Source of the DNA: Anaerolineae bacterium
GTDB taxonomy: Bacteria > Chloroflexota > Anaerolineae > B4-G1 > DUEL01
DNA: 36,349 nt
Direction: 5' to 3'
Assembly: GCA_034434635.1 (NCBI GenBank)
Contig: DAOTYX010000130.1
Location: 1 to 36,349, forward strand
Shown: in pieces, positions 4,733 through 35,092 of the stretch
How positions within the stretch are numbered: the stretch's first letter is position 1
Layout: each line of letters begins with the position of its first letter
Position numbers and translations under genes: made by a program
Notes under the pieces: model-generated
Seen by the model: the letters and a program-made list of their open reading frames with translations, nothing else
Told to the model about the DNA's origin: nothing
Databases searched by the model: none

Positions 4733-4760
4733 GGCGACCTCCCAGAGATGGGCCAGCGGG

Positions 4761-5198
4761 TCAGCGATCCGCTGATTCGCCAGCACGCTGATCCGGCCGA
4801 TAAGGGCGGCGGCCCACGCGCAGGCGCACCTGAGCGCGGTGGAGCGCCTGCAGGGCAGCGATCCGCTCCTGCGGCGGCGGTTCCCTGGTCAACAACTCCT
4901 CCGCCTCCCGGCGGGCCCGCTCCGCCCGCATGATGTCAATATCCTCAGCCCGCTCTGCCACATCGGCCAGCACGATGACCCGGTCGGGCAACACCTGCAT
5001 GTACCCGCCGTGGATGGCGAAGGTCAGCTCTTCCTCCCCCTGGTGGGCCACCAGCACCCCTTCTGCCAGCACGGTGACCAGTGGGGCGTGGCGGGGCAGG
5101 ATGCCCATCTGTCCCTCCGCTCCGGGGGCCAGGACCCTGTCCACCTCGCCGGTGAACAGTTCCCGCTCTGGCGTGACGACGTCCAGACGCAGTTTCAT
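4761..5198 (-). CDS. atpC: F1 ATP synthase epsilon subunit.
   Basis: [40 protein letters not shown] is a canonical epsilon N-terminus. ATG preceded by GGGGGAG, directly after the atpD stop. Confidence 0.85.
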
Positions 5199-12311: not shown

Positions 12312-12349
12312 AGGGTGGATTATCGCACAGAGTGGGCGGGGAAGCAACC

Positions 12350-12420: not shown

Positions 12421-13311
12421 CTATTCCCTGCGCGGGGCCAGCGGCCCCAGCAGGCTGGCGAACTCCAGCGGGAAGATGAACTTGGTCGCCGGACTCTCCC
12501 CCAGCCGCTTGAGCGTCTCCAGGTATTGCAGGGTCATCGTGTTGGGATCCACCTGCTGGGCGATGCCGTAGATGTGCTGCAACGCCACGGCGTACCCCTC
12601 AGCGCGCAGCGCCTGGGCGGCTCGCTCGCCCTCGGCGCGCAGGATGTTGGCCTGCTTCTCGCCTTCGGCCTGCAGGATGCTGGCTTGCTTCTGTCCCTCG
12701 GCCACCTTGATCGCTGCCTCGCGCTGCCCGTCCGCCTCGGTGACCATCGCCCGGCGGTTCCGCTCCGCCGACATCTGGCGGTTCATCGCTGCCTGGATCT
12801 CCTTCGGCGGCTCGATCTCGCGGATCTCCACACTGGTCACCTTGACGCCCCAGCGCTCGGTCACCTCGTCCAGTTTGACCCGCAGCACCTGGTTGATGTG
12901 CTCCCGCTGGGCCAGCACGTCGTCCAGCATGATGTCGCCGATCACCGCGCGCAGGGTGGTGGTGGCGATGCCGATCGAGGCGCGGCGGAAGTCCCCGACC
13001 TGCAAGACACTGCTTTCAGGATCCACCACCTTCCAGTAGATGAGGAAATCAACGCCGATGGGCGCGTTGTCTTTGGTGATGCTGGTCTGGTGAGGGATCT
13101 CCAGAAACTGCTCCCGCAGGTCGGCCTGCACCGCACGGTCAATGAAGGGGATGAGGATGACCAGCCCCGGCCCCTTAGCCCCGATGCAGCGGCCCAGGCG
13201 GAAGACAACCAGCCGTTCGTACTCCCGCACGATGCGGATCATCGAGAAGAGGAGGATGAGGAAGACGATGGCGACGAAGCCCAGGATGAAGAACAGAGCA
13301 ACCCATTCCAT
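12421..13311 (-). CDS. SPFH / band-7 (stomatin-prohibitin-like, slipin) family protein.
   Basis: N-terminal transmembrane helix, then the SPFH core (RIVREYERLVVFRLGR...ITKDNAPIGVDFLIYWKVVDP) and a coiled-coil AEGEKQA-repeat C-terminus. ATG preceded by AGGAGGA. Confidence 0.85.
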   Translation of the reverse strand: MEWVALFFILGFVAIVFLILLFSMIRIVREYERLVVFRLGRCIGAKGPGLVILIPFIDRAVQADLREQFLEIPHQTSITKDNAPIGVDFLIYWKVVDPESSVLQVGDFRRASIGIATTTLRAVIGDIMLDDVLAQREHINQVLRVKLDEVTERWGVKVTSVEIREIEPPKEIQAAMNRQMSAERNRRAMVTEADGQREAAIKVAEGQKQASILQAEGEKQANILRAEGERAAQALRAEGYAVALQHIYGIAQQVDPNTMTLQYLETLKRLGESPATKFIFPLEFASLLGPLAPRRE

Positions 13312-13338
13312 TTTGTCCTCCTGTCTGTTGTTCCCTGC

Positions 13339-13950
13339 CTACAACGGCGTGACGCGCAGGCGCACGCCCTCCACGGCCACCACGCGCACCGGCGTGCCGA
13401 CGGGGATGGGGGTGTCTGCCACGGCTGTCCACAGTTCACTGCGCACCTGCACCGTGCCCACCGGGTCAATGGCCGACGTGACGACCCCCTCCGCGCCGAC
13501 GATGGTCTGCGGGTCGGTCTTGACGGCCAGCCGTTGGGCACGCACGGCCGCGTTGAGGGCGAAGCCGAAGAAGGCGAAGGTAGCCAGGGTCACCCCGCCG
13601 ATCACCCAGGGGGAGAGGGCCACGCCCGTGCCGGGGCGGAACAGCAGGAGCGACCCCACCGCCAGCCCCAGCGCCGCGCCGACCCCCAACCCGGTGCTTT
13701 GGAGTTTGAGGTCGGCCACGAACAGGCCCATGGAGACCAGCATCAGGGCCAGGCCGATCAGGTTGACCGGCAGCCGCACCAGTCCCAGCACGGCCAGGAG
13801 CAGGCAGATGATCGCCGCGGCTTCCGGGAAGCCGGTGCCGGGCACCGTCCATGCCGCCGCTGCCGCCCACAACCCCAACAGCAGGAGCACGTAGGCGACG
13901 TTAGGGTTGACCAACAGCCCTTGCAGGAAAGCCAGCCATTCACCGTTCAT
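13339..13950 (-). CDS. NfeD family membrane protein, the SPFH partner (YuaF-like, with a C-terminal OB-fold).
   Basis: Multi-transmembrane N-terminus plus a C-terminal beta domain (TVQVRSELWTAV...GTPVRVVAVEGVRLRV). It lies directly upstream of the SPFH gene in the classic NfeD-stomatin operon arrangement. ATG preceded by AGGGGG. Confidence 0.8.
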   Translation of the reverse strand: MNGEWLAFLQGLLVNPNVAYVLLLLGLWAAAAAWTVPGTGFPEAAAIICLLLAVLGLVRLPVNLIGLALMLVSMGLFVADLKLQSTGLGVGAALGLAVGSLLLFRPGTGVALSPWVIGGVTLATFAFFGFALNAAVRAQRLAVKTDPQTIVGAEGVVTSAIDPVGTVQVRSELWTAVADTPIPVGTPVRVVAVEGVRLRVTPL

Positions 13951-14112: not shown

Positions 14113-14140
14113 CCATTGGTCATTGGTCATTGACCATTGC
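14113..14140. repeat. Tandem heptamer repeats (CATTGGT x2, CATTGAC, CATTG) overlapping the 3' end of the regulator gene.
   Basis: Reads ccattggtcattggtcattgaccattgc. The stop codon of the AAA-wHTH gene (14127-14129) lies inside the array. Confidence 0.6.
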
Positions 14141-15449
14141 TCTGCAACCGGTAGCCGCGCCCGCGAACGGTAAGCAGGTAACGCGGATTGGCGGGGTCCT
14201 GCTCGATCTTGGCCCGCAGTCGGCTGACCAGCTTCTCGATGCGGGCATCGTCCACCTCGTCAATGAACTTCTCCCCCCAGACAGCCTCGACCAGGGTGAA
14301 CCTGTCACACAGTTTGTCCTTGCGCTCGATCAGGAAGCGCAGCAGCCGGTACTCCAGGTCGGTGAGCGGGGGGGCCTGGCGTCCGTCCACGTAGACCTCG
14401 CCGGAGTCAGCGTCCAGCCAGACGCCGGGGGGCAGGTCGGCGCGGCGCTGACCATGTCGGCGGATGAAGGCGGCGAAGGCGGCGCCGAACAGGTGCCCCT
14501 GCTCATCGGTCAGGCCGAGGCTGGTCAGACGCTCCCTGGCTGCCTGGCCCACCGGCTCTCTCTCCACCAGTCCCTGGAGAGCGGCGCGCTCGGCGGCGGT
14601 GAGCTGCCCCCACAGCCGGCCGCACTCGCGACGGGTGGCCTCGTCGCCCGGCAGCGCCTCTGCAACCAGACGGGTGCCCATGCTGGCGTAGGTTTCCGGG
14701 GCGACGGCGCGTGCCCGCAGCAGCAACCGGGTGACCGCGCCGAGCAGTCCAGGGTGGCCGCCAGCCTGCTCGACGACGAAGTTCACCTCTTCCTCGCTCA
14801 GCGTGGTCCCTGCCACGGCAGCGACCTGCCGCACCCGTTCTGCGCTCCAGGCTTCGGCCAGCATCCCCAGCCTGCAGGTGTGGTCAGCGAAGAGTTCGCG
14901 GAACTCGGCGGTCTCTGCGTCGTCACGCAACTCATCCAGCGGGCGCTCCACGCCCACCACGTAGACCAGCGCTGGTCGGTAGCGGTCGCGCAACGCGCGC
15001 AGGTTGAGGAAGGTCCGTCCCTCCAGCGCGGCGAACGGCTCGTCGAACTCGTCCAACACCAGCACGACAGGGTGGCTCACCCCTTCGCACAGCCCTTCTA
15101 TCCCCTCGATGAAGCCCAGAGGGATGGCAAAAGGGTTGCTGGGTTCGACCACCTGACGGTAGGCGTGTTCCAGCCGTTCCGTCACGGGGGCCGGGGCAGC
15201 GGGCGGGCGGAAGTGGGCGCGGACTGCGCGCAGCACGGCTTCGTAGAAGCCCTGTTCGGAGAGATCGAGCATGCGGTTGCAGTCCACGTACACCCGCCAG
15301 GCGGCTCCCTCGCTCGCTTCGGGGGTGCAGAGGGCGCGCAGCAGGGTGGACTTGCCGGTGTTGCTGAGGCCGCTCAGGGCACAGCACATGCCATCCTGCA
15401 AGTAGCCCTGCAGGATGGTCATTTTGTGAGGATGGGGAAGGACTTCCAT
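14127..15449 (-). CDS. Transcriptional regulator with an N-terminal P-loop NTPase (AAA-type) domain fused to a C-terminal OmpR/PhoB-type winged-helix DNA-binding domain.
   Basis: Walker A GLSNTGKSTLL and a Walker B-like VLVLDEFDE. The C-terminus (LTDLEYRLLRFLIERKDKLCDRFTLVEAVWGE...IEKLVSRLRAKIE...LLTVRGRGYRL) is a textbook trans_reg_C wing. ATG 15449 is preferred; 15422 and 15569 are alternatives. Confidence 0.7.
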   Translation of the reverse strand: MEVLPHPHKMTILQGYLQDGMCCALSGLSNTGKSTLLRALCTPEASEGAAWRVYVDCNRMLDLSEQGFYEAVLRAVRAHFRPPAAPAPVTERLEHAYRQVVEPSNPFAIPLGFIEGIEGLCEGVSHPVVLVLDEFDEPFAALEGRTFLNLRALRDRYRPALVYVVGVERPLDELRDDAETAEFRELFADHTCRLGMLAEAWSAERVRQVAAVAGTTLSEEEVNFVVEQAGGHPGLLGAVTRLLLRARAVAPETYASMGTRLVAEALPGDEATRRECGRLWGQLTAAERAALQGLVEREPVGQAARERLTSLGLTDEQGHLFGAAFAAFIRRHGQRRADLPPGVWLDADSGEVYVDGRQAPPLTDLEYRLLRFLIERKDKLCDRFTLVEAVWGEKFIDEVDDARIEKLVSRLRAKIEQDPANPRYLLTVRGRGYRLQSNGQ

Positions 15450-15620
15450 AGCCTTTCTGCTCTGTGGCTCTTTGTCTCTGCCACTGCTCACCCTCCCGCA
15501 GATTGCTTTCGAACCTGCGAGAGGGTACAGGTTGATTGCCCCATCTGCGGATAAGAGCGACGCCAACACAGGGCCCGTGGGCCACCGTGTTGGCGTCTTC
15601 CGGTTCTCCTGGCGCGGAGT

Positions 15621-16196
15621 TCAGTGGGCGGTCCGTGCCCGTCGTGCGGCGACCAGTATGATCAGCAGCGCCCCGGCGATGACCATGGCGGCGAAGGGGG
15701 CAACGCCCGTCTGTGAGACCTCGGAAGGCGCATGCGCAGCCGCAGAGAGGGTGGGGGTTGGCGAGCCCACGGCTCTAGGGATGGTCGTGGGGGTCGCTCC
15801 GCCGCTGGGAGTGGCCACCTCTCGCGGCGTGCCCAATCCGGTGGGGGTCGCCTCTGGAGTGGGAGGAACCGTGGGGGGCGGCTGGGTCGGTGTCAGGGTC
15901 GGAGGGACGGTGGGAGGGAGAGTGGGGGGGACCTCCGTGGTCACAGCCACGGCAGCGGCGGTCGCCGTGGCAGCAATGTCCACAGCCGTTGTCGATGTGG
16001 GAGGCACCTGCGCCGCGCGCCCGCGGTTGCCCAGGATGCCGCTGAAGGCGACCACCCACACGCAGAAGGCCACAACGCCGATCAGCAGCAACCCGCCCAT
16101 CGCTGCCACCAGAATGATAAACAGGCGGTTCTGCCCCTCGCCCCCTCCTCCTTCCTCTTCTTCCTCCAACTCCTCCATCTCCAGGTCCACGTTCAT
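15621..16196 (-). CDS. Membrane protein with an acidic cytoplasmic N-terminus, one transmembrane helix, a long Pro/Thr-rich linker, and a C-terminal hydrophobic segment plus RRAR tail (sorting-signal-like).
   Basis: ATG preceded by a perfect AAGGAGGTG. The N-terminus MNVDLEMEELEEEEE is followed by a transmembrane segment, (PPT)n, and a C-terminus EVSQTGVAPFAAMVIAGALLIILVAARRARTAH*. It is the last gene of the 8-gene operon. Confidence 0.65.
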   Translation of the reverse strand: MNVDLEMEELEEEEEGGGGEGQNRLFIILVAAMGGLLLIGVVAFCVWVVAFSGILGNRGRAAQVPPTSTTAVDIAATATAAAVAVTTEVPPTLPPTVPPTLTPTQPPPTVPPTPEATPTGLGTPREVATPSGGATPTTIPRAVGSPTPTLSAAAHAPSEVSQTGVAPFAAMVIAGALLIILVAARRARTAH

Positions 16197-16289
16197 CCTT
16201 CACCTCCTTGAACGGGTACGTTGGTGACCACGTGCTCACCCCTCAGCCCTTACCGCAGGTTTTGAAACCCCTGGGAGGGTGGCTGAGCC

Positions 16290-17354
16290 TCAACGCAGGA
16301 TCTCCAGGTTGACCAGCGGGATGGTCATTATCTGCTCGTCGTCGTCTCTCTTCACCCTGGCGGCCGCCATCTGTGCGCCGCTGGCGGTGCGCGCCCAACT
16401 CGGGAAAGCCACCACGACGCCGGTGATGCCCAGGTAGGGAGCGCGCACACCCCGCACGACGTCTCCCACCTTCAGCTCCAGGTTTGCGTCTGGCAGGGCT
16501 TCCGCTGCGCCTTCTGCCGGCAGCGGCACAATCACCTCTGGTCGGACAACCTCCCAACCGGTCCGGAAACGGGCGTCCAGGGTAGCCTCGCGGCCGTCGT
16601 GGGCCATCAGCAGGTGGTGGATACGGGGGCACATCGGCGCGTCGCCGAGCGCCTCGGTAACGACGATCGGGAAGGCCATCTCTTCGGCAGCGGTCAGGGC
16701 GTCGGGGGAGAGGCCGCCGGTGATGATGCCGCGCACCTGCATCTCGACGGCCTTCTCCAGCGCGTCTTTGTCGAGCCAGCCACCGCCGATGAGCACTGTG
16801 CCCCGGCACGTGGCGTCAATAGACCTGCCGCGCAGGGGTTTGTCGCGCTCCTTGATCAACACCTTCAGCACGCCCGACCCCTCTTTGCCGTTGCCCCAGG
16901 CGCCCTGTATCAGCGCCCCGTGGGTGCGGATCACCACCCCCCAGCCTGCCACTACCCGTGAGATGGTGCCGTAGAGATTGGCGCGCAGTTCGAACTCTTG
17001 AGGAGGGGCTTCGATGAGCAGCCAGCCGCCACCGCCGTCGGTCACTACCCCATCTATCGGTGCGCGGCAGACCCGTTTGTTGGGCCAGCGGACGGCGGCA
17101 AGTACCTGGCCGCGCTTCACTTTCTGGCCACTCTTGACCTTGAGGGCCTTGCCCACGGCGGCAGGAGACAGGCCCAGCACGCGGGCGACGTTGACAACAC
17201 GCCGGTCCATAGGAAGATTGGCCTGGCCGATCACCTGGATCGGCTCGACCCTTTCCCCTTCGCGGACGAGGATCTCGCCGGCTACCGGCAGCACCCGCTC
17301 GCGCTGGATGACGGTCAGCGGGGTGGCGATTGTCTGCGGCAGGTAGACCTTCAC
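16290..17354 (-). CDS. Hypothetical protein with biotin/lipoyl-like barrel-sandwich-hybrid segment(s).
   Basis: GTG at 17354 preceded by GGGAGGA, 2 nt after the ASKHA gene stop. AGEILVREGERVEPIQVIGQ and VKSGQKVKRGQVLAAV...APIDGVV match the G.x.V.eGd.V..Gq.L pattern. No family assignment is possible by eye. Confidence 0.55.
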   Translation of the reverse strand: MKVYLPQTIATPLTVIQRERVLPVAGEILVREGERVEPIQVIGQANLPMDRRVVNVARVLGLSPAAVGKALKVKSGQKVKRGQVLAAVRWPNKRVCRAPIDGVVTDGGGGWLLIEAPPQEFELRANLYGTISRVVAGWGVVIRTHGALIQGAWGNGKEGSGVLKVLIKERDKPLRGRSIDATCRGTVLIGGGWLDKDALEKAVEMQVRGIITGGLSPDALTAAEEMAFPIVVTEALGDAPMCPRIHHLLMAHDGREATLDARFRTGWEVVRPEVIVPLPAEGAAEALPDANLELKVGDVVRGVRAPYLGITGVVVAFPSWARTASGAQMAAARVKRDDDEQIMTIPLVNLEILR

Positions 17355-17356
17355 GG

Positions 17357-19117
17357 CTATCCTCCCACGTCCCAAAGCCACTGCTGGATCTGTTTCTGAC
17401 GCCTGGATGGCTCCTGCGGCAGTTCGAGCGGCCGGCCGCGCGCGTCAATGATCAGCCCCGCCAGCCCGCCGCGCACACGGCGGCGGCCTCCCTTCCCAGA
17501 CCCGCCAAGTCCGACGTCGAACCGGCCGCGCGGGCGCAGTTCGAGCACTGCCTCTTGACCCGGCGGCAGGGGGAGCACCTCCAGAGAGCCGTAGGGCACC
17601 TCCACATCCAGCATGCCCCCCTGTTCGTACTGCACGCGCACGCGCAACACCACCTCGCCCTTTCGGGCCTCGCCCACCGGCGTGACGACCGTCGCCAGGT
17701 TGACGATACAGCCGCTGTCCAATATCTCCACAGCCGCCAGCGGCTTCAGCCGGGCCACTCCACCCAATGCCGGGGCCAGGCCATGCAGGTCCAACAACAC
17801 GGTACTTATGCCGATGGGTTGGATCGCGTCCAGGGCCAACAGGACTGCCTGCCCAGGCCGTGGAGCGCCGGCCAGCAAGCCACCGCTGAGCAGGATCGGG
17901 TCCAGCAGCGGCGTGAGGTGCGGGTAGAGTTGGGCCTTCCCGGGCTGCCAGGAACGTTGGGCTGTGCGCAGTGTCTCACGGATCGCCTCGCGGGCTACGG
18001 CCTGGGCCAGCCACAGTTCCTGAGGCTCCTGCGGCACAGTCCACGGCCGGGCCTCCCAGTTCAGCAGGATGGCCCGCGCCTCGTCCAGTTCCATGGGGAC
18101 TGGTAACCAGCGCAAGATGGACGACGGATCCTTCTCTCCCAGCAGGCGCCGTCCGGCGGAGACCGCCCCCAGATCGCTGCGGACGGTCAGGCCGGGGTGA
18201 CCTGCGAAGGCCGAGGCCACGGTGGTGTGGGCCGCACCCAGGTCAATCCCCAAAGTGCCTTTGGGGGACTCGTCCAGATACCAGACGTAGTGGATGAGTT
18301 GTGAGAAGGCCTTGGCGGTGGGGGTGATGGGAAGGGCGCTCCAGTGGGCCAGGAGTTCGCTGCCCGGCAGTTGTTCCAGTTTCGACTGAGCGTAGAACGA
18401 TTCCAGTTCTGCACGCAATCCGTCCGGGCTTTCCTGGTCGGGCAGGGGGCGCACGTTGTCGGTGACGCGCACTTCGGCCCGATCGCCTACGGTATGGACC
18501 ACGCGCTGGCGGAGAGCGGCGTTGCCGGCAAAGATCAGGCTGGGGCGTTTCTCCTTCTCGATGAGCGCGCAACCCAGCGCGGCGGTCTCCACCAGTTCCA
18601 ACACCGGCAGGGTTGCGCCGCCGTCGCAACCGCCCACGATGCAGATCAGTTCCGGCCGGCTCTCGGCGATCAGGCGGACCTGCTCCTCTTCTGACATCCA
18701 GCCTTGGCTGGGGTCACGGCTGATGACGCCGGCAATGGTGGCGTAAGTGCCGGCCACAGCGTGTTCCGCGCTGACCAGACTGATGTCCCGCACCAGGCCG
18801 GAGAGGAGGACGCGCAGGGGCTGCGCCGCACTGGCCAACACCACCAGGGCGTCCACCCCTATCCCGCTCTGCTCTTCGGGGATGATCAGCTGCCCGCCGA
18901 CCTGCAGGAGCGTGCGTCCGGTGACGTCCTCGATCTGAGCGATGGCGTGCTGGAGGCCCACAGCGACGTCGTACCAGGGCGCATCGGCAGTGGTCGGCGC
19001 CTCGCCGCGGGCGATGAAGCGGTAAGCGCCGCCCACCCGCCCCAGGAGGACGGCCTTGGTCATCACGGCGCCGCAGTCCGCGACCAGGATCGAACCGATA
19101 GGCTGTTCTGTGGCCAT
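17357..19117 (-). CDS. Large actin/Hsp70-fold (ASKHA superfamily) ATPase-like protein, 586 aa, of unknown function.
   Basis: Phosphate-1 motif ILVADCGAVMTKAVLL near the N-terminus and a phosphate-2-like GIDLGAAHTTVASAF about 290 residues later, plus GG-rich adenosine-like motifs. ATG preceded by GGGGAG. Larger than MreB/FtsA/ParM. Confidence 0.6.
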   Translation of the reverse strand: MATEQPIGSILVADCGAVMTKAVLLGRVGGAYRFIARGEAPTTADAPWYDVAVGLQHAIAQIEDVTGRTLLQVGGQLIIPEEQSGIGVDALVVLASAAQPLRVLLSGLVRDISLVSAEHAVAGTYATIAGVISRDPSQGWMSEEEQVRLIAESRPELICIVGGCDGGATLPVLELVETAALGCALIEKEKRPSLIFAGNAALRQRVVHTVGDRAEVRVTDNVRPLPDQESPDGLRAELESFYAQSKLEQLPGSELLAHWSALPITPTAKAFSQLIHYVWYLDESPKGTLGIDLGAAHTTVASAFAGHPGLTVRSDLGAVSAGRRLLGEKDPSSILRWLPVPMELDEARAILLNWEARPWTVPQEPQELWLAQAVAREAIRETLRTAQRSWQPGKAQLYPHLTPLLDPILLSGGLLAGAPRPGQAVLLALDAIQPIGISTVLLDLHGLAPALGGVARLKPLAAVEILDSGCIVNLATVVTPVGEARKGEVVLRVRVQYEQGGMLDVEVPYGSLEVLPLPPGQEAVLELRPRGRFDVGLGGSGKGGRRRVRGGLAGLIIDARGRPLELPQEPSRRQKQIQQWLWDVGG

Positions 19118-19126
19118 CCTTATGGA

Positions 19127-19771
19127 CTATCTCCCCAGAATGTGCAGCAGGCTTTGCAGGCCTTCCAGAATGACGTAGGCCCGGCCGACAAGAACAGAGA
19201 GGCTGGCCGTCAGCGCAGCGGCGAAGGCAGCGCCGAAGGCCACCATCAAGAAGAAGCGGCCCACTGCGCCCAAGACGTTGACCACTTTGGCCGCGACTCC
19301 CTGCAGGCCCTGCCGCCGTCGAAGGGTGAAAGTGAAGGCCAGCAGCGTGCAGACCGTGCCGAGGGCCACCAGGAATCCACCACTTCCTCCGCTGGCGCTG
19401 GCCTGGGGCAGGATGGTGCCCAGCAGCGCTCCTCCCATCGCCACTGCTGCGCCCACGCCGATGAGGAACGCGGTGGCAAAATTGCCCAGGTTGGCCAGAC
19501 GGGGCACGAACTTGAACAGCAGGAACAGGCCCAGCAGCGTGGGCAGGATGAGGGTGTACTGTTGCTGCGGCGTGCCGCTCTGGAACAACGGGACCACGGC
19601 GCGGATCAGCACGGTCGCGACGACGACCGCGACGGCGTAGCCCACGCTGGCGCCCACAAGGAGATGCAGCGCCAGGCGGTAGAGCGGGTTGTCCCTGAGA
19701 AAATAACTCAGGATGAGCACCGTCAGCAAGGCCCCCACGATGCCACCGAGCAGGTCCAATGTTTCCATCAT
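19127..19771 (-). CDS. Polytopic membrane protein (214 aa), unknown function.
   Basis: The ATG ATG at 19771 is preceded by AGGAG and overlaps the upstream gene's TGA (ATGA). 5-6 predicted transmembrane helices. The long N-terminal extension in the ORF track (to 20047) is rejected. Confidence 0.6.
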   Translation of the reverse strand: MMETLDLLGGIVGALLTVLILSYFLRDNPLYRLALHLLVGASVGYAVAVVVATVLIRAVVPLFQSGTPQQQYTLILPTLLGLFLLFKFVPRLANLGNFATAFLIGVGAAVAMGGALLGTILPQASASGGSGGFLVALGTVCTLLAFTFTLRRRQGLQGVAAKVVNVLGAVGRFFLMVAFGAAFAAALTASLSVLVGRAYVILEGLQSLLHILGR

Positions 19772-21945
19772 CGGCTCCTGCCTCTGAGCAAGAAGACCAC
19801 TGCACCGACGATCATCAGTGCTGCGACGACCCCCTGGGTGAGGGTGAGCGACCGCAGGTAGAGCACCACCCGGCCGCTGCTGCTGCCCAGCCGCGCCTCG
19901 TAGGCTGCCGCTCCGGTCAATCCAGTGACCATCCCCCGTAGCGGGGTGCCCGCGCGCAGGTACGGCCGGGCGACCGGTTCGGAGCGGGCACTGATGCCGG
20001 CCAGAAGGGGTCGGCTGGGACTGCGGGCTGCCATCTGCTCCACCCACGCCTGGAGGTCGCCCTGTTGTCCGGCCAACACCACCACCAGGGCGGCGCTTGT
20101 CGCCGCCGGGCTGTCCAGCGCGTCACGGACACCCAGCGTCTGCCCCGGCCAGTAACCCAGGTTGGCCACCTGTGCAGTGCGCTGGGCCGTGGTGATCAGG
20201 CCGGTGGCCTCCAGATCGGCGAGGAGCCGGTTGGCCAGCGTCGTCCCCTCCGGGCGGGTGCTGACGATGGTCACCTGCGCGCCGCGCTGCAGGAGGTGGT
20301 GCAGTACCGGCTCTGCCACCCGATCCATCTCATCTGCCTCGCCGGGATCGTACTCGAAGGCCACCAGGACGGAGGTGCCGGCTCCAACCGTGGCTTCGAT
20401 CTGGTCGAAGACCTGTGACGCTTCGGCAGCCGGCCCGACGACGGCTTGCGGCGCGGGCTGATCGGGCAAGGAGATGCCGAACATCGGGAGGATGACAGCG
20501 GCCAGGAGCAGCAGGCCGATGAAGGCGTGCTGGAGCGACCAGCCGACCTGAGGGCGCGGGCGTTCGGCCTTTCGAGGCGGAGTTGTCGGGCGGGTGAGCA
20601 GTTCCTGCAACAGTTCGGCGCGGGCGATGCTGGCCGCGCTGGCAGCGACAGGAGCGCCCTTCGCGACCGCCCTGGGTATCCTCTCGGCCAGTGGGCTGGC
20701 CGGGAGCGTCCCGCGCAGCCCTTCGAGCAGCCCGGTGGCCTCTGCTGGCTCCTCGGTAGCAGGAGGGGCCTCAGGCGTCGGGCGAAGGGCCTGCATCCAC
20801 TCGGGGATCTCTGCCGGAGCCAACGCCTCCCGTTCTGGACGGGCGGCAGGAGGTGGGGCAGGCAGGCCTTCCTCCTTTGGCCTCAGTTCGAGCAGCCAGG
20901 AGGGGATCTCCCCGGGCTCGATGGGTCCCAACGGCTCCTCTGTCGTGAAGACGGGCGGCGTGGGTTCTGGTCTCTCCCTGGCCTCCGCCTCCATCCTTGC
21001 CAGTCCTGCCTCCATCTCTGTCAGCCAGGGGGGGACCGTGACCTCTTTCGCGGGCGGGGGTGCGGATGGCACGGGCGGGGATGGGGTCTCTATCTGGCGC
21101 AGCCAGTCGGGGATGTCGGTCGGCGCGGCAGCGGGAGCCGCTGTCTCCGGGCCGCGCAACCAATCGGGCACCTCTCCCTCAAACACGAACGGGGAGGGCC
21201 CGGCAGGGGTTGTCGGCTCGCCGGTCTCCTGCAGTTCACGCAACCAGTCCGGCACGCCAGCCTCTTCGGCGGGGGCAGAGGGCTTCGGCGGTGCAGCGCG
21301 GACTTCGGCTTCGCCTGACGGGGGAGCCGGTTCGGCCGGCGCAGCCGGCCTGCCGGTCCCCTGAAGGTCGCGCAGCCAATCAGGGATTTCCACTTCCTCC
21401 AGCGGCGGGGTTGGGGGAACGGGAGCAGCGGGTGGTGGTGGCGCTCCCGCGCGCAACTCACGCAACCAGTCGGGGAGGTCGCTCTCTGCGGCTGGGGCGG
21501 GGGGAGGAGGCGGAGGCGGCTGTTCATCCGCGGGTGCCAGTAACCCACCAAGCCAGTCGGGGACTGAGGTGGGCTCGGCCTCTTCGGGCGAGGGGGTTGA
21601 AGGCGTGGTGGCCTTCTCTTCGCCCATCGTGGAGCGCAGGTCACTCAACCAATCGGGCTCGGCGGCAGGGGAAGGCCCCCCTTCCTCGAGGGGAATGGTG
21701 GGCAGGGAAAGGCTCCGCAGGGACGGCCTGGTTGGCGAGGTTTCACCCTCCTCATGCTCATCCGCTGGTGCGGCCGAGAGCGGCGTGAGGCGGGCGCCGC
21801 ACCGATCACAGAAGACATTGGCGGTGATGTTCACCGCCCCGCACATCGGGCAACGTAGCCCTGTCTGTGGCAGAGTTGCGCCGCACTCCCGGCAGAAACG
21901 GCTCCCCTCGGGGTTGTCGGCTCCACACTTCGGGCAAGAGATCAT
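19768..21945 (-). CDS. Double zinc-ribbon membrane protein with a tandem PDWLR(E/D)L repeat region, a transmembrane helix, a roughly 240-aa C-terminal domain and a terminal transmembrane helix.
   Basis: N-terminus CPKCG...CRECG...CPMCG...CDRCG (two CxxC-x(n)-CxxC ribbons). About ten repeats of the type (V/I)PDWLRELQ separated by Pro/Ala-rich spacers. Transmembrane segment HAFIGLLLLAAVILPMFGI, and a final segment VVAALMIVGAVVFLLRGRSR. ATG preceded by GAGGCTGG. Confidence 0.7.
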   Translation of the reverse strand: MISCPKCGADNPEGSRFCRECGATLPQTGLRCPMCGAVNITANVFCDRCGARLTPLSAAPADEHEEGETSPTRPSLRSLSLPTIPLEEGGPSPAAEPDWLSDLRSTMGEEKATTPSTPSPEEAEPTSVPDWLGGLLAPADEQPPPPPPPAPAAESDLPDWLRELRAGAPPPPAAPVPPTPPLEEVEIPDWLRDLQGTGRPAAPAEPAPPSGEAEVRAAPPKPSAPAEEAGVPDWLRELQETGEPTTPAGPSPFVFEGEVPDWLRGPETAAPAAAPTDIPDWLRQIETPSPPVPSAPPPAKEVTVPPWLTEMEAGLARMEAEARERPEPTPPVFTTEEPLGPIEPGEIPSWLLELRPKEEGLPAPPPAARPEREALAPAEIPEWMQALRPTPEAPPATEEPAEATGLLEGLRGTLPASPLAERIPRAVAKGAPVAASAASIARAELLQELLTRPTTPPRKAERPRPQVGWSLQHAFIGLLLLAAVILPMFGISLPDQPAPQAVVGPAAEASQVFDQIEATVGAGTSVLVAFEYDPGEADEMDRVAEPVLHHLLQRGAQVTIVSTRPEGTTLANRLLADLEATGLITTAQRTAQVANLGYWPGQTLGVRDALDSPAATSAALVVVLAGQQGDLQAWVEQMAARSPSRPLLAGISARSEPVARPYLRAGTPLRGMVTGLTGAAAYEARLGSSSGRVVLYLRSLTLTQGVVAALMIVGAVVFLLRGRSR

Positions 21946-21957
21946 CGCCAGCCTCGA

Positions 21958-22602
21958 CTACACGTCGCTGTGGGGGCGGTCCATACCGATAAGGATGCGC
22001 ACACCCATGACCAACGTCCCCAGTCCCACGCCGATCAGCAGCCCACGCATGCCGGGCAGGGCGAGCGTCTCCACCCACCAGGCGCGCAGGTGAGTCAACG
22101 GCACGGCCAGCGGTTCCGGCAGAGGGGCCGTGCCGACGAGCACTACCAGGGCGCTGGCGAGGAAGGGGAGCACCCACAGGTTCCGTCTTCCGCGCACCAG
22201 ACGGAAGGCGGCCAGCGCCAGGGCGAAGGCCACCAGCGCAGCGGCCCCGGCCTGGAGGGGCAGGAGGACGAACCCGAACCACCAGTCACTCAGCCGACGG
22301 AGGAGGTCCAGGTTGACCAGCAAGCCAGCGCCGGTTACGAGCAGGGAGACGAGAGCCGCCAGCAGGAGCGCCAGGCTGTTCAGTCGTGCCCCAAACCCCT
22401 GTTTCCGGCCCGCCAGACGAAGGAAATGCACCTGGAGCACGTTGAGAAAGCCCAGCAGCAGAGCAAAGGCGGCCACGATCGCTGCCCAGCGCACCATCAA
22501 CACCGTCAGTTCCTGATAGGGGGTCAGGTACCCGGTAAGGGTTAGCACGGCGGCGGCGATGGCGATGATCATGGGCAAGATCTGCTTGGTCAGGCGTTCC
22601 AT
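21958..22602 (-). CDS. Polytopic membrane protein (214 aa), unknown function.
   Basis: ATG preceded by GGGGAG immediately after the upstream TAG stop. About six hydrophobic helices. Confidence 0.6.
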   Translation of the reverse strand: MERLTKQILPMIIAIAAAVLTLTGYLTPYQELTVLMVRWAAIVAAFALLLGFLNVLQVHFLRLAGRKQGFGARLNSLALLLAALVSLLVTGAGLLVNLDLLRRLSDWWFGFVLLPLQAGAAALVAFALALAAFRLVRGRRNLWVLPFLASALVVLVGTAPLPEPLAVPLTHLRAWWVETLALPGMRGLLIGVGLGTLVMGVRILIGMDRPHSDV

Positions 22603-22611
22603 CGGGCTCCC

Positions 22612-23382
22612 CTAGAAAAGACGAACCCCCAAGGCGGCCAGGATGAGGAGTGCTACCAGCAGGAAACGCAGCACGTCCTGTGTGCTCAGGCTGGCCAGGT
22701 ATTCTGGTCGGGCCGTCAGTCTGGCGCCGGCGGCGTAGAGCTCTTCCCCGATGGCCAGCGTCGCATCGGTGGGGTAGAGCGCACCGAGAGCGCGCAGTTG
22801 ATCGGTTGCAGCCTCCTGGGTCAGCCCTTTCTTTTCGCCCGCAGCGGCCAGCAACACTGCCTCTTCGGCGAACGCTCCGGCGAGCAGGTTGCCGGTGATC
22901 GGTTCGTGGCTCAGGCTGTCCGCTGCGCCCAGGGCATATACCACGGGCGAGGGGGCGACGAAGCGGACCGAGGTGGGCTGGTAGCGTTCGGGGATGCCGG
23001 CGCGCGCGCAGGCGCGACGCAGGACGTCCTGAGCCAGCGGGAGGAGGGTGGCATCGCCCACGGTAACGACGGGAGGGGTTCCGTAGAGCACCGCGGGTTT
23101 GGCGATGGCCTCGAGGGCCTGCAAACCGGCCAGAGAGGTGATCGTGCGCTCTCCGCCGATGCCCCCGGAGCCCAGAGCCACGTGAAGCGAAGCGCCCTGC
23201 TCGGCGGCAAGTCCCAGTTGTGTGGGCAGCGCGTCGAAGGCGGGGATCGGGCGGACATACGGACGGCGGCCACGGCGGGCGCGCGCGGCCAGGAACACCA
23301 ACAACAGCACGGTGATGACCAGCATCAGGAGGGCTGCCAGCATGCGCCCGCTGAAGGCGGCGTTACCCGTCGGATTGATCAT
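22612..23382 (-). CDS. Membrane-anchored protein (256 aa) with N- and C-terminal transmembrane helices, unknown function.
   Basis: Its ATG overlaps the upstream stop (ATGA). N-terminal transmembrane helix followed by RARRGRR, then a soluble domain and a terminal transmembrane helix. Confidence 0.55.
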   Translation of the reverse strand: MINPTGNAAFSGRMLAALLMLVITVLLLVFLAARARRGRRPYVRPIPAFDALPTQLGLAAEQGASLHVALGSGGIGGERTITSLAGLQALEAIAKPAVLYGTPPVVTVGDATLLPLAQDVLRRACARAGIPERYQPTSVRFVAPSPVVYALGAADSLSHEPITGNLLAGAFAEEAVLLAAAGEKKGLTQEAATDQLRALGALYPTDATLAIGEELYAAGARLTARPEYLASLSTQDVLRFLLVALLILAALGVRLF

Positions 23383-23651
23383 TCCCTGGCTCCTCCCGTG
23401 ACGGTCTCTTCCAGCAATCGGTTGACCTGGGCGGGGTCATCCAGCCACCCGGCCATCTGGCGCAGGGGGCCCTGTCCCATCTGACCGGCCAGGAGCGGCT
23501 CGCCCAGCAGGAGCACCTGACTCGCCAGTGGGCCGAAGGCGCGGGCCAGTTCGAGGAGAGGGAGGAGCACCGGCATCAGTCCCGCTGCCTGCATCCGCTG
23601 TGCCCATATTTCGATAGGCGAAACGGCCTGACCCTCGTTCATCTTACGCAT
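23379..23651 (-). CDS. Small protein (about 90 aa), first gene of the operon. The start is uncertain: ATG 23651, ATG 23642 and GTG 23702 are all possible.
   Basis: The ORF is translationally coupled (ATGA) to the next gene. The promoter -10 TATACT abuts ATG 23651, suggesting a leaderless or near-leaderless mRNA. Confidence 0.4.
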   Translation of the reverse strand: MRKMNEGQAVSPIEIWAQRMQAAGLMPVLLPLLELARAFGPLASQVLLLGEPLLAGQMGQGPLRQMAGWLDDPAQVNRLLEETVTGGARE

Positions 23652-23680
23652 AGTATACAGACAAGTGGCAGTTTTGCCAA
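23652..23680 (-). promoter_or_regulatory. Near-consensus sigma70 promoter (P1) for the 8-gene operon.
   Basis: The minus strand reads TTGGCA, a 17-nt spacer, then TATACT, immediately followed by ATG. Confidence 0.5.
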
Positions 23681-23840
23681 ATGCCGGTAACTGCCTTCCC
23701 ACGCCGACGGAAGTCGCCCGCTTGGGGCCTTCGGCCTGCGGTCAGTGCAGGCCGGCCGCAGGCGCCCAGAAAGGCCGATTTCCAATCGGCACACGGCGGC
23801 AGGCAGCCGGGTGGGTGATGACGTTTTGCCTATGCTGCAT

Positions 23841-23869
23841 AGTATAGCAAACTGGGCCGAAGATGCAAA
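23841..23869 (-). promoter_or_regulatory. Second near-consensus promoter (P2), about 190 bp upstream of P1.
   Basis: The minus strand reads TTTGCA, a 17-nt spacer, then TATACT ATG. The motif gcatagtata recurs in both promoters. Confidence 0.4.
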
Positions 23870-23935
23870 ATGCTGTCTCTGTGACGGCCTCTCATTGAGC
23901 GTTGTTCACGGCACGGAGAGTCGAATGCGGGGAAT

Positions 23936-24048: not shown

Positions 24049-24945
24049 CTACTCGATGCGGAAGGTCGCCTGGATCTGCCGAAGGAGCGGTGAAAGGCCC
24101 TCCCCTGCCGCCCGCAGCCGCAGCAGGTAGAGCCAGCGGTCATTCCCCTGCACCACCAGCGCCTCCGCCACACCCTGGGGCCAGCGCTCGCTGAAGCGGA
24201 AGCCCCGCGCGGTATTCCACTCCACTGGCTCCACTGCCAGCCGCTCGACTGCTGTGTTGGGTGGCAGGGTGGCTTCCAGGAACATGCTCGCCGTGTCCAG
24301 GTGCAGTGGCTTGGCCGGGCCGGGCGCCCACCACAGTTCCACGGTCTCTTCGTCGCGGCTCCATACCCGCCCGCCGGCAACTTCGTCGCCGCTCTGCTGC
24401 ACCTCCCCGAAGGCCTGGGGGATGGCAAGGCTCACGCCGCTGCGCACCTTGCCGCTCAGGTCGCGCAACGGCAGTGACAAGGGTTGGAACGTCAGCACCC
24501 GCTCACCACGGATCGTCTCCCTGGTCTGGACGAAGACCGTGAGCCACCAGTCTCCTGGTTGGGGGAAAAGGGGCAGGTAGAGAAGGGTCGGAGCCGTGTA
24601 GGTGTCCCCCTCTCCCCGAAGCAGGTCGGAGGACCAGTATTGGTGATGGCGGGGGTCGCTCACCCGCACCCAGACGCGGGCCCCGGGGTCGCGCTGGGCT
24701 AGCCCTGGCAGGTCGGCGGCGATGGGCACGCCCTCCAGTGCCGAGACCGCTGCCGGGAAGTGCAAGGTCAGCGGGATGGGGGGGATGGGGGTGGGGGTCG
24801 GAGTGGGTCGGGGCGTCGCCGTGGGCGCAGGGGGGAGCGTGGGCGAAGGGGGTGCCGTCGCACATCCGGCGCAGACAAGAGCGGTCAGGGCAGCGCAGGC
24901 CAGGAGCCATGGGGAGAGACGGTGGGGAAAGCGGCGCACGCTCAA
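24049..24945 (-). CDS. Putative lipoprotein with a Pro/Thr-rich linker, unknown function.
   Basis: TTG/GTG start overlapping the hflX stop. N-terminus MSVRRFPHRLSPWLLACAALTALVCAGC (signal peptide plus lipobox-like Cys), then a PTPTP linker. Confidence 0.55.
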   Translation of the reverse strand: MSVRRFPHRLSPWLLACAALTALVCAGCATAPPSPTLPPAPTATPRPTPTPTPIPPIPLTLHFPAAVSALEGVPIAADLPGLAQRDPGARVWVRVSDPRHHQYWSSDLLRGEGDTYTAPTLLYLPLFPQPGDWWLTVFVQTRETIRGERVLTFQPLSLPLRDLSGKVRSGVSLAIPQAFGEVQQSGDEVAGGRVWSRDEETVELWWAPGPAKPLHLDTASMFLEATLPPNTAVERLAVEPVEWNTARGFRFSERWPQGVAEALVVQGNDRWLYLLRLRAAGEGLSPLLRQIQATFRIE

Positions 24946-26216
24946 ACCTCCTCTTGCGGCCGGGTCAACAGGCCGATCATCCGGCGCGGCACCCGTCCGA
25001 CGATACGCGTACCCCGTGCGGTATGCGCTTCTCGCTCCACCGCGCCATGCTCATGGATCATCTGCACCAAGTCGCCCCGCTCGAAGGGGAGCAGCACGTC
25101 CACCGGCACCATCTCTTGCTCCAGCACCTCCTCGATGCGGCCCAGCAACAGGGGGATACCGTACCCTTCCAGCGCCGAGATGGCCACGCTGTTGGGGAAG
25201 TCGGTCAGCATGGCGGTAACCGCCTGGGGGTCAGGCAGGCGATCCACCTTGTTGAGCGCCGTCACCACCGGGCGGTCCGTCGCGCCGATCTCTGTCAGCG
25301 TCTCCATTACCGCGCGGGCCTGGCTCCGTGCGTGTGGGTGGGTGATGTCCACGACGTGGAGCAGGAGGTCGGCCTCAGATACCTCCTCCAGCGTGGCGCG
25401 GAAGGCGGCCACGAGTTGGGTGGGGAGTTTCTGGATGAAGCCGACGGTGTCGGTGAAGAGCGCAGCCCGTCCGCCGGGCAGGCGCACGCGGCGGGTGGTG
25501 GGGTCGAGTGTGGCGAAGAGTTTGTCCTCCACCAGGACACCGGCGTCGGAGAGGGTATTGAGCAGGGTGGACTTGCCGGCGTTGGTATAGCCGACGATGG
25601 CGACGACGGGGATGCCCTCACGGCGGCGCCGGGCGCGGTACTGGCTGCGGTGGGCGCGCACCTTCTCCAGTTCCGCTTCCAGGTGGGCGATGCGGCGGCG
25701 GATGACCCTGCGATCGGTTTCCAGTTGGGTTTCACCGGGACCGCGCAGACCCACGCCGCCGGTTGCCCCGCCGGCCCGCCCGCCCGCCTGACGAGCCAGG
25801 TGGGTCCAGGCGCGGGTCAGGCGGGGCAGACGGTAGCGGTACTGCGCCAGTTCCACCTGGAGCGCCCCCTCGCGGGTTTGGGCGTGCTGGGCGAAGATGT
25901 CCAGGATGAGCGCGGTACGGTCGAGCAGTTTGACCCCGTCGCCCAGCGCTTTCTCTATCTCGCGCTGGTGGCGTGGCGACAGTTCGTCGTCGAAGATGAC
26001 CACGTCAGCGGCGGTCTCAGCGACCCGCTCGACCAGTTCCTCGACTTTGCCGGCGCCGATGAAGGTGGCCGGGTGAGGCCGATCCAGCCGCTGTTCGATC
26101 TGTCCGACCACCTCGATGCCGGCGGTGCTGGCCAGTTGGGCCAGTTCCTCCAGCGAGGCCGCCAACGACCAGTCGCCGTCTGGCGAGGCGCTGGCTTCTT
26201 TCAGTTCCACTCCCAC
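24942..26216 (-). CDS. hflX: GTPase HflX.
   Basis: HflX N-domain, then the G-domain G1 GYTNAGKST, G3 DTVGF, and G4 NKVD. About 424 aa. GTG start. Confidence 0.85.
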   Translation of the reverse strand: MGVELKEASASPDGDWSLAASLEELAQLASTAGIEVVGQIEQRLDRPHPATFIGAGKVEELVERVAETAADVVIFDDELSPRHQREIEKALGDGVKLLDRTALILDIFAQHAQTREGALQVELAQYRYRLPRLTRAWTHLARQAGGRAGGATGGVGLRGPGETQLETDRRVIRRRIAHLEAELEKVRAHRSQYRARRRREGIPVVAIVGYTNAGKSTLLNTLSDAGVLVEDKLFATLDPTTRRVRLPGGRAALFTDTVGFIQKLPTQLVAAFRATLEEVSEADLLLHVVDITHPHARSQARAVMETLTEIGATDRPVVTALNKVDRLPDPQAVTAMLTDFPNSVAISALEGYGIPLLLGRIEEVLEQEMVPVDVLLPFERGDLVQMIHEHGAVEREAHTARGTRIVGRVPRRMIGLLTRPQEEV

Positions 26217-26286: not shown

Positions 26287-26604
26287 TTAGCCCCATCTCC
26301 CGCCCCGGTTCGATCTGCGGGGCCCTCCTCCTCTGCTTCCGCCTCTCCTCTCGCCGCCCTCGGTGCGCGGTCGGGCCTCGTTGACCCGCAACTCGCGTCC
26401 CTTCAGAGGCTTTCCGTTCAGGCCGGCGATCGCCGCCTGCGCCTCGGTGTTCGACGGCATCTCCACGAAGCCGAAGCCTCGCGATTCGCCGCTGAACTTG
26501 TCCTTGATGATGGAGACGGAAGCGACCTGCCCATAGGCGGCAAAGGCCTCGCGCAGGTCCGCCTCGGTCACGTTGAACGACAGATTGCCTACGTAGATGT
26601 TCAC
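26287..26604 (-). CDS. RRM-type RNA-binding protein with a Gly/Arg-rich tail.
   Basis: RNP-2 IYVGNL and RNP-1 RGFGFVEM. C-terminus RGGSRGGGPRRSNRGG. The GTG start is preceded by AAGGAG directly after the dinG stop. Confidence 0.85.
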   Translation of the reverse strand: MNIYVGNLSFNVTEADLREAFAAYGQVASVSIIKDKFSGESRGFGFVEMPSNTEAQAAIAGLNGKPLKGRELRVNEARPRTEGGERRGGSRGGGPRRSNRGGRWG

Positions 26605-35078: not shown

Positions 35079-35092
35079 TTTGGCCCTCTTCC

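Follow-up and report, generated by a model that had tools for sequence, protein, structure and literature searches.

We describe a run of eight genes, here called g1 to g8, in a 36,349-nucleotide (nt) stretch of DNA from an Anaerolineae bacterium (contig DAOTYX010000130.1 of assembly GCA_034434635.1), which we refer to as the window. An earlier sequence-only reading had placed eight co-directional genes here, and indeed their open reading frames (ORFs) run on the minus strand from about 23651/23702 down to 15621; the public gene calls for contigs identical to the window contain the same eight genes (Table 1). The description of a gene set that encodes mainly membrane proteins plus a cytoplasmic ATPase of the ASKHA superfamily is supported as well. 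Of the products, six lie in or at the membrane, and the remaining two, g6 and g7, are soluble, cytoplasmic and translationally coupled.

Table 1. Genes and other features of the window, with the operon first and its neighbours below.
Feature	Position (nt)	Strand	Description
g1	23379..23651	minus	90 residues from ATG 23651; 87 residues from ATG 23642; ORF open from GTG 23702
g2	22612..23382	minus	DUF6754 protein, 256 residues
g3	21958..22602	minus	membrane protein with six transmembrane helices, 214 residues
g4	19768..21945	minus	scaffold protein, 725 residues
g4 double zinc ribbon	21787..21945	minus	two CxxC-CxxC, residues 1-53, cytoplasmic; Pfam DZR, Zn_Ribbon_1
g4 disordered tail with motif array	20776..21666	minus	residues 94-390, 10 motif copies
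g4 extracytoplasmic domain	19852..20457	minus	residues 497-698, probably outside; between two transmembrane helices
g5	19127..19771	minus	membrane protein with six transmembrane helices, 214 residues
g6	17357..19117	minus	cytoplasmic ASKHA-fold ATPase, GlmL/'MutL' family, 586 residues
g7	16290..17354	minus	cytoplasmic protein, 354 residues, GTG start
g8	15621..16196	minus	191 residues; acidic head, transmembrane helix, Pro/Thr-rich linker, LPXTG-like motif, RR tail
P1, sigma-70-like promoter	23841..23869	minus	TTTGCA-17-TATACT, TG before the -10 element
P2, sigma-70-like promoter	23652..23680	minus	TTGGCA-17-TATACT, -10 element abutting the g1 ATG
Hairpin 3' of g8	15559..15597	minus	17-bp stem, one bulge, without U-tract
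g9	14127..15449	minus	STAND/AAA_16 NTPase with C-terminal OmpR-type winged helix; Pfam Trans_reg_C (E 7e-20), AAA_16, nSTAND1
NfeD + Band_7 pair (SPFH/Band-7 locus)	12421-13950	minus	
GT-C-type protein, TMEM260_N domain	10710-12347	minus	533-545 residues; related to protein O-mannosyltransferases
Canonical MreB	3722-4786		PF06723/MreB_Mbl, E 3e-134
MeaB-type G-protein chaperone of methylmalonyl-CoA mutase	386-1318		
hflX, then lipoprotein-like protein	24942-26216, 24049-24939	minus	second protein 296 residues (LVCAGC), no known family; almost no gap
RRM_1 RNA-binding protein	26287-26604	minus	105 residues; between a 961-residue RNase T/DEAD-helicase (DinG-like) gene and hflX
SPFH protein + TPR protein	32737-35369	minus	SPFH protein 547 residues; SPFH stop overlaps TPR start, ATGA 33726-33729

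A class-wide operon of two modules

The genes are closely packed. From g1 to g8 the junction gaps are, in order, -4, 9, 12, -4, 9, 2 and 93 nt, so that the proposed range of -4 to 12 nt applies to six of the seven junctions but not to g7-g8. Two of the three ATGA start/stop overlaps that had been counted are present, at 23382/23379 (g1/g2) and 19771/19768 (g4/g5), while the third, given as '33729', belongs to an unrelated TPR/SPFH pair. GGAGG-like ribosome-binding sites do lie ahead of g2, g3, g5, g7 and g8, but g1 has no Shine-Dalgarno sequence. The start of g7 follows 2 nt past the g6 stop and is preceded by GGGAGGA.

This arrangement is conserved. Hundreds of full-length relatives of g6 were found at 55-71% identity, all from metagenome genomes of Anaerolineae/Chloroflexota; in a scan with one genome per species, at least 538 species encode a g6 relative, and the best 80 g6-bearing genomes are all named Anaerolineae, Anaerolineales, Thermoflexales/Thermoflexia, Caldilineaceae or Chloroflexota. 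For synteny, the ORFs of the orthologous loci (numbered with the prefix L) were searched with the window proteins, and the 55 loci whose sequence extends 6 kb or more upstream of g6 were taken as informative. In 48 of them g2, g3, g4 and g5 precede g6 in unchanged order and on the same strand; two more are partial (in L073 a giant g4 pushes g2-g3 beyond range) and five show none of them. Wherever the flank permits a call (80/80 genome loci), g6 is flanked by g5 and/or g7. Behind g6 stands g7 wherever the sequence extends, followed in most loci by g8, and homologues of g1 were found directly upstream of g2 in 33 loci, a count that includes three copies of the window itself. The overlaps are kept too, the g1/g2 and g4/g5 junctions having medians across loci of -2.5 and -4 nt, and the g7-g8 spacer is consistently longer, with a median of 64 nt. 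The flanking genes, in contrast, are wholly different among the window, L001 and L087, the last of which sits on a 5.37-Mb contig and has a g2 only 39% identical to that of the window. Conserved order and tight junctions amid differing flanks bear out the sequence-only reading of one operon: g1-g8 is a vertically inherited, class-wide operon of the Anaerolineae that is arranged as a unit. We regard it as very probable that the products of this operon act together at the membrane. From synteny, they might also form one co-translated complex or a machine driven by the ATPase.

The five loci without upstream g2-g5 are a related group (L009, which is named Thermoflexales, L010, L012, L016 and L021). 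In this group g6-g7-g8 are placed behind an M42 peptidase gene; in L010 they sit behind unrelated housekeeping genes. The Thermoflexia metagenome-assembled genome D6793 (L085) shows where the other genes are found: its contig carries g2-g3-g4-g5, then ybeY and a diacylglycerol kinase gene, and the two halves are unlinked but both retained (g2 is D6793_02515, g7 is D6793_05115). The cluster thus consists of two modules, a membrane module (g2-g5 as seen in Thermoflexia, g1-g5 elsewhere) and g6-g8; in Thermoflexia, too, the membrane module probably comprises g1-g5. Because g2-g5 and g6-g8 stand at separate loci there, co-transcription of all eight genes is not obligatory. One might take this split, together with the long g7-g8 spacer, as a sign that the genes are functionally unrelated and adjacent by chance. 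We find this scarcely credible, since the order is kept down to 38% identity while the flanks change, the start/stop overlaps are conserved and both halves are retained together after splitting.

The two tandem sigma-70-like promoters that had been proposed upstream of g1 were both found. A promoter scan of 11 kb found 2 sites, where shuffles gave 0.7 +/- 1.0, and many divergent orthologous loci likewise have a TATACT -10 element, often as TGnTATACT, shortly before g1. As the -10 element of P2 abuts the first g1 ATG and g1 lacks a Shine-Dalgarno sequence, the g1 mRNA is probably leaderless, with ATG 23642 as the start; the position of P2 suggests that its transcript would begin near 23645, essentially without a leader. 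P1 transcripts would carry a leader of about 190 nt (23652-23840, minus strand), the fold of which is moderately above shuffles (z = -2.4). No known RNA was found in the P1-P2 leader or elsewhere (no Rfam match at gathering thresholds). The string TATACTATGC is common to P1 and P2, and GGCAAAAC is also present after the P1 -10 element. A palindrome, TGGCAAAACTGCCA (23666-23679), overlaps the -35 element of P2 and may be an operator. At the other end of the operon, the g7-g8 spacer folds no better than shuffles (z = 0.0). The 81-nt segment around the hairpin behind g8 reaches -41.4 kcal/mol (z = -4.4; 0/200 shuffles equally stable), and the hairpin is likely the 3' end or a stabiliser of the operon transcript.

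Membrane proteins and a peptide array of variable length

The small protein g1 belongs to no known family in Pfam or NCBIfam. g2 had been read as a bitopic protein of 256 residues with transmembrane (TM) helices at both ends, and this was borne out. It matches DUF6754 (Pfam PF20539; E 5.3e-37, 127.8 bits against a gathering score of 27), a family without described function, and no solved homologue was found by sequence profile. Across the family, Lys and Arg residues average 0.4 before and 4.2 after the first helix, and 1.8 before and 0.3 after the last one. Because of this charge distribution, the domain of about 190 residues between the helices is probably cytoplasmic, clamped by the two helices in an N-out/C-out topology.

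The proteins g3 and g5, described earlier as a 6-TM and a polytopic protein, both have about six TM helices. They are distinct, conserved proteins with glycine-rich helices, and for neither did Pfam, NCBIfam or the PDB yield a relative; scans extended to 25 orthologues apiece gave only scattered noise. We rejected the idea that g3 and g5 are paralogues, and likewise that g2 and the C-terminal part of g4, both of which are built TM-domain-TM, are; BLASTP and local hhalign detected no relation in either case (probabilities <1%).

Two different conserved 6-TM proteins whose genes are tightly coupled to that of an ATPase bring to mind an ATP-energised transporter or exporter. Here the conduit, built of g3 and g5 together with g2 and g4, would pass a solute or some component of the envelope, with g6-g7 as an unconventional ASKHA unit that energises or gates it; g8 and the outer domain of g4 would act outside. 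The glycosyltransferase and sulfotransferase genes directly downstream in L001 would fit, but this neighbourhood is not conserved in other loci. In addition, the orthologue scans of g3 and g5 gave no match to any transporter family in Pfam, NCBIfam or the PDB, no transporter driven by an ASKHA ATPase is known to us, and the peptide array described next would be left unexplained. Overall, we consider a transporter unlikely.

The array is carried by g4. Its earlier description as a protein of 725 residues with two zinc ribbons, ten motifs and two TM helices stands, but the outer domain measures about 200 residues rather than 240. The N-terminal zinc ribbons match Pfam DZR (E 2.7e-10) and Zn_Ribbon_1 (E 9.6e-12, two stretches). 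They are followed by about 400 Pro/Ala/Glu-rich residues holding the ten motif copies, nine of the form [LIVM]PxW[LM] and one EPDWL; an example 12-mer is EEIPDWLRELQA. The TM helices span residues 467-496 and 699-724. From 527 instances in orthologues we obtained the logo E-[LIV]-P-D-W-L-x-[ED]-L. Full-length orthologues, which range from about 600 to 2774 residues, contain 1-45 copies at a median spacing of 36 residues, and the linker around them is otherwise unconserved, with 22% Pro. Giant versions occur in L073 and L080 (Anaerolineae/Anaerolineales), with 2662 and 2774 residues and 44-45 PDWL-type copies compared with the 10 here. No tandem repeat was found in g4 at the DNA level, so the array is not a recent expansion, and the motif is absent from the other ORFs of the window and of the orthologous loci. 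On account of the logo, the variable copy number in an unconserved linker, the missing DNA repeat and the restriction to one ORF, the motif looks, as far as the sequences tell, like a short linear motif under selection within a disordered tail. By the charges around the helices this tail is predicted to be cytoplasmic, and the domain between the two helices lies probably outside the membrane. This outer domain has invariant residues (Y, E, P, W-x-E-Q, Y and G), and no known family or solved relative was found for it; a Pfam scan of 25 orthologues gave only scattered noise.

The last protein, g8, does have the acidic head, the Pro/Thr-rich stretch, the C-terminal hydrophobic stretch and the RR tail that had been noted, but its sortase-like motif reads VSQTG in the window. 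Orthologues carry [LVMI]PxTG(I/V)G or PxQTG, which a hydrophobic stretch of about 20 residues connects to RRLR, and a perfect LPxTG is present in several Anaerolineales (L068, L071, L077, L079 and L083); it is these orthologues that suggest the LPXTG reading. The 25 residues before the long TM helix contain 8.2 Asp and Glu on average, a conserved QNRTF precedes the helix, and on average 3.4 Lys and Arg follow the last TM segment, so that charge places the acidic head putatively in the cytoplasm. No cleavable Sec signal peptide was found in g8, which has no positively charged n-region and begins with the acidic head instead. Since its N-terminal TM helix is then not a cleavable signal, mature g8 would be both membrane-embedded and wall-linked.

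The soluble pair g6 and g7

That g6 is an ASKHA ATPase of 586 residues with a DCGAVMTK motif was confirmed, but the protein does not stand for a new type of exceptional size. It belongs to Pfam PF13941 (MutL/GlmL) over the full length of the model, matching positions 1-448 of 450 with E 4e-54 and 184.4 bits against a cutoff of 27. This was the only hit of the hmmscan search (E <= 0.1), which returned no FtsA, SHS2_FTSA, PilM_2, MreB_Mbl or StbA/ParM match. The phosphate-1, phosphate-2 and adenosine motifs are invariant, and in the orthologue alignment D14, G16, T20, K21, D292, G294, T298, G412 and G413 are invariant or nearly so. These invariant nucleotide motifs indicate that g6 probably hydrolyses ATP; an ASKHA fold with intact nucleotide-binding motifs is a superfamily-wide trait and does not discriminate between kinds of ASKHA protein. 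Beyond the Pfam model g6 has about 115 further C-terminal residues with an invariant IIDARGRPL and a nearly invariant QWLWDVGG tail. The AlphaFold (AF2) model, with a predicted local distance difference test (pLDDT) score of 79 and a predicted template-modelling score (pTM) of 0.85, combines an ASKHA core and an inserted flavodoxin-like domain with a beta domain towards the C-terminus, and it finishes in a helix. When this model was searched with Foldseek, the matches were hydantoinase-type enzymes, Hsp70s, PilM and FtsA. No specific solved relative was found, and the sequence-profile search of the PDB agrees with a generic ASKHA similarity.

Many g6 orthologues are named 'glutamate mutase L' by NCBI. 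Together with the full-length PF13941 match and a MeaB gene 16 kb away, this name invites the explanation that g6 is the glutamate mutase accessory protein L, which would reactivate a B12-dependent mutase, with the membrane genes as unrelated neighbours. The curated models speak against it, with 59.7 bits for NF040745 GlmL (cutoff 475), 65.2 for NF040744 Or-4 (600) and 49.1 for TIGR01319 (204), that is, 49-65 bits where 204-600 would be needed. No gene for a B12-dependent mutase subunit (glmS/glmE, ornithine aminomutase) adjoins g6 in the window, L001, L002, L010, L085 or L087. Moreover, g6 is fixed between g5 and g7 in all 80 callable loci, and the extra C-terminal domain, which is highly conserved, lies outside the 450-position Pfam model. 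The context largely refutes this explanation, and we regard it as very improbable. Curated-model scores and gene context together indicate that the label 'glutamate mutase L' is an over-annotation, carried over from the name of the Pfam family, and that g6 is not a GlmL orthologue.

By sequence, the closest relative of g6 by descent is nevertheless GlmL, and among the GlmL/MutL chaperones (more loosely DdrA and EutA, the B12-enzyme reactivases) the likeness is that PF13941 is the only sequence family of g6. With its ASKHA motifs intact, ATP-driven conformational work on a partner would be plausible for g6 as for chaperones of this type. Unlike them, it scores below the curated cutoffs, stands among membrane proteins without mutase genes and carries the additional C-terminal residues.

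For g7 several barrel-sandwich hybrids had been proposed. Only a single one is present, and it is followed by a swivelling beta/beta/alpha domain and, at the C-terminus, a KOW (SH3-like) barrel. The structure model has a pLDDT of 90, and the profile search of the PDB returned only the KOW domain plus weak barrel-sandwich matches. The family is large, with 985 clusters at E <= 1e-30 in a library of 1.84 billion proteins; among the 150 listed, most have about 355 residues.

Named systems and a possible mechanism

The sequence-only reading could not assign the gene set to a named system, and our searches of Pfam, NCBIfam, PADLOC, PHROGs, PDB sequences and folds, and the literature led to the same result. 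Profile searches put no described, named operon on the eight proteins. Pilins or pseudopilins, the PilB/GspE ATPase, PilC/GspF, PilN/O and GspL/M gave no Pfam or NCBIfam match in g1-g9, and no type IV pilus, Tad or type II secretion family matched among 25 orthologues each of g3, the C-terminal part of g4 and g5. The literature searched contains no mention of DUF6754, PF13941, the PDWL motif or this cluster. A defence system or a prophage was rejected as an explanation, PADLOC and PHROGs being negative: g1-g8 have no PADLOC match, and their only PHROGs matches are the g4 zinc ribbons. The neighbouring gene g9 has a weak PADLOC match (E 0.0072) and one PHROGs match through its winged helix-turn-helix region. 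Each named system fails on at least one of the defining features tested, and by sequence family, fold and literature the cluster appears to lie outside every described kind of system.

Several systems are nonetheless alike in part. In PilM-PilN(-PilO), too, a peripheral ASKHA ATP-binding protein is encoded with bitopic membrane proteins, and PilM is kept on the membrane through a short peptide on the cytoplasmic side of PilN, which a docking of g6 on g4 peptides would resemble. The cluster differs in having no PilM_2, PilN or PilO family match and no pilin, secretin or PilB/T genes; g6 contains the inserted flavodoxin-like domain and the C-terminal beta domain, and the putative docking peptide of g4 comes in 1-45 copies instead of one. 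RodZ, which works with MreB, and GltJ of Myxococcus gliding are likewise bitopic. They begin with a small cytoplasmic domain, which is a helix-turn-helix in RodZ and a zinc ribbon in GltJ, and reach through a Pro-rich linker and a single TM helix to an outer domain, and they connect an actin-fold or motility ATPase system to the envelope. However, we detected no homology to g4, whose C-terminus adds a further TM helix and whose tail bears the PDWL array, and in the window a canonical MreB is encoded elsewhere. The only GltJ match was a low-complexity match of g8 (E 0.0034, 16.5 bits against a cutoff of 450). As in sortase-anchored LPXTG proteins, the g8 family shows [LVMI]PxTG, a hydrophobic stretch and an Arg-rich tail; unlike these, g8 has its acidic head and long TM helix without a standard cleavable signal peptide, no functional passenger domain but only a Pro/Thr linker, and the VSQTG of the window copy.

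The comparison with cell division requires more weighing. The FtsZ C-terminal peptide, which FtsA binds, has the pattern [DE]-[IV]-P-x-[FY]-[LM]-[RK]. The cluster could be a division or elongation accessory in which the PDWL array mimics this peptide and tethers or titrates proteins that bind the FtsZ tail; as a variant, g6 would be an FtsA-like membrane anchor at the septa of multicellular filaments. The logo E-[LIV]-P-D-W-L would fit the FtsZ-tail pattern as we take it to be, the invariant, WLW-containing C-terminal helix of g6 could bind the membrane as the tail of FtsA does, g8 would provide a link to the cell wall, and the one class to which the cluster is confined consists of filamentous bacteria. 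Much as FtsA has a membrane-targeting helix at its end, g6 has a short conserved one, but the sequence of g6 places it in the GlmL family, with no Pfam FtsA, SHS2 or PilM match, and no division genes lie in or adjoining the cluster in the loci inspected, which sets it apart from FtsA/FtsZ/FtsN. Furthermore, the aromatic residue of the g4 motif is Trp, and the motifs are on a membrane protein, not on a tubulin homologue. No ftsZ gene for a comparison of tails was present in the window or the 87 fetched loci. At least Litorilinea, a relative within the Caldilineae, is reported to have a standard FtsZ-based system (bioRxiv 10.1101/2025.08.19.671072), which leaves no gap for the cluster to fill; the idea that the cluster replaces a missing FtsZ divisome was rejected for the same reason. 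A canonical MreB is also encoded in the window. Overall, we think a division or elongation role quite improbable.

The mechanism that we propose builds on what the sequences show, namely the genes with their order and conservation, the families and folds assigned to the proteins, the motif array and the topologies read from charge. All contacts between the proteins, the way in which energy is coupled and the part that the system plays in the cell are inferred from these. A membrane platform would consist of g1, the DUF6754 protein g2, the bitopic scaffold g4 and the two proteins with six TM helices, g3 and g5, and the ATPase unit of g6 with its translationally coupled partner g7. The multivalent E-[LIV]-P-D-W-L array on the disordered cytoplasmic tail of g4 would concentrate g6-g7 at the membrane, akin to FtsA reading FtsZ or FtsN tails or PilM reading the PilN N-terminus. 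Some ASKHA proteins, among them FtsA and PilM, hold partner peptides, and SH3-like barrels often read proline-containing ones; the g4 peptides may be read either by g6 through its ASKHA domain or by g7 through its KOW barrel, which is SH3-like, the two proteins being the only cytoplasmic candidates encoded with g4. ATP turnover by the chaperone-type g6 would then remodel or gate the membrane proteins. Finally, g8 would be held by its N-terminal helix and, with its C-terminus probably linked to peptidoglycan by sortase, rivet the assembly to the cell wall. Because the cluster is class-wide and strongly conserved and the defence and phage searches are negative, the likeliest role would be a housekeeping rather than an accessory one, serving the assembly of the cell envelope or the morphogenesis of these monoderm, filamentous bacteria.

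Several points weigh against this proposal. By sequence g6 groups with GlmL-type chaperones and not with cytoskeletal proteins. The VSQTG of the window g8 deviates from LPXTG, and g8 has no normal signal peptide. Additionally, g3 and g5 could equally be a transporter, and a canonical MreB is present in the organism. The combined reading of a membrane platform, a docked g6-g7 ATPase and g8 as wall rivet, acting in the envelope or morphogenesis, we give a little under even confidence; the specific docking and rivet mechanism is doubtful. Equally tentative is the broader picture of an undescribed, class-wide, envelope-spanning machine, in which a GlmL-type ATPase recruited from B12-enzyme repair would dock on an expandable array of 1-45 FtsZ-tail-like peptides and exert mechanical work on a membrane complex, which a protein with a TM helix at one end and LPXTG at the other would rivet covalently to peptidoglycan. 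The cluster is a well-delimited lead with testable parts and not a demonstrated new mechanism, and the earlier interpretation as a membrane-spanning machine is reasonable, though unproven.

Among the neighbouring genes, g9 stands beside the cluster in about 25 orthologous loci including L001 (downstream of g8, in two upstream) and is absent in L087; it is probably a dedicated regulator of the cluster. The TMEM260_N gene lies about 3 kb beyond g9, an adjacency not conserved in other loci, and its product could glycosylate Pro/Thr-rich envelope proteins such as g8. Upstream of the operon, the hflX/lipoprotein-like pair is likewise not kept beside the cluster in other genomes. MreB and MeaB show that the organism has an ordinary actin homologue and a B12-mutase chaperone apart from g6; genes for the alpha, gamma and beta subunits of ATP synthase lie between these two genes and the cluster.

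The Anaerolineae are abundant filaments in sludge, sediments, hot springs and the subsurface, and their cell biology is almost unstudied. A class-wide operon with an ATPase that is 55-71% identical across orders likely serves a core cellular task, for which no described system accounts. Our analysis corrects an annotation on hundreds of genomes, where 'glutamate mutase L' wrongly points to B12 metabolism, and gives a genomic context to DUF6754 and four family-less proteins. It also delimits testable parts, namely a short linear motif with a 45-fold range in copy number, a cytoplasmic ATPase unit of two proteins and a candidate for a protein that is both membrane-anchored and wall-linked. If the docking model is true, the FtsA/PilM-style design of an actin fold on a peptide would have been invented independently from a chaperone-type ASKHA ATPase. 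If the machine reading holds, it would be a new principle by which cytoplasmic ATP hydrolysis is coupled to the wall of monoderm filamentous bacteria, and septal junctions, sheath or wall patterning and surface motility would be possible settings for it.

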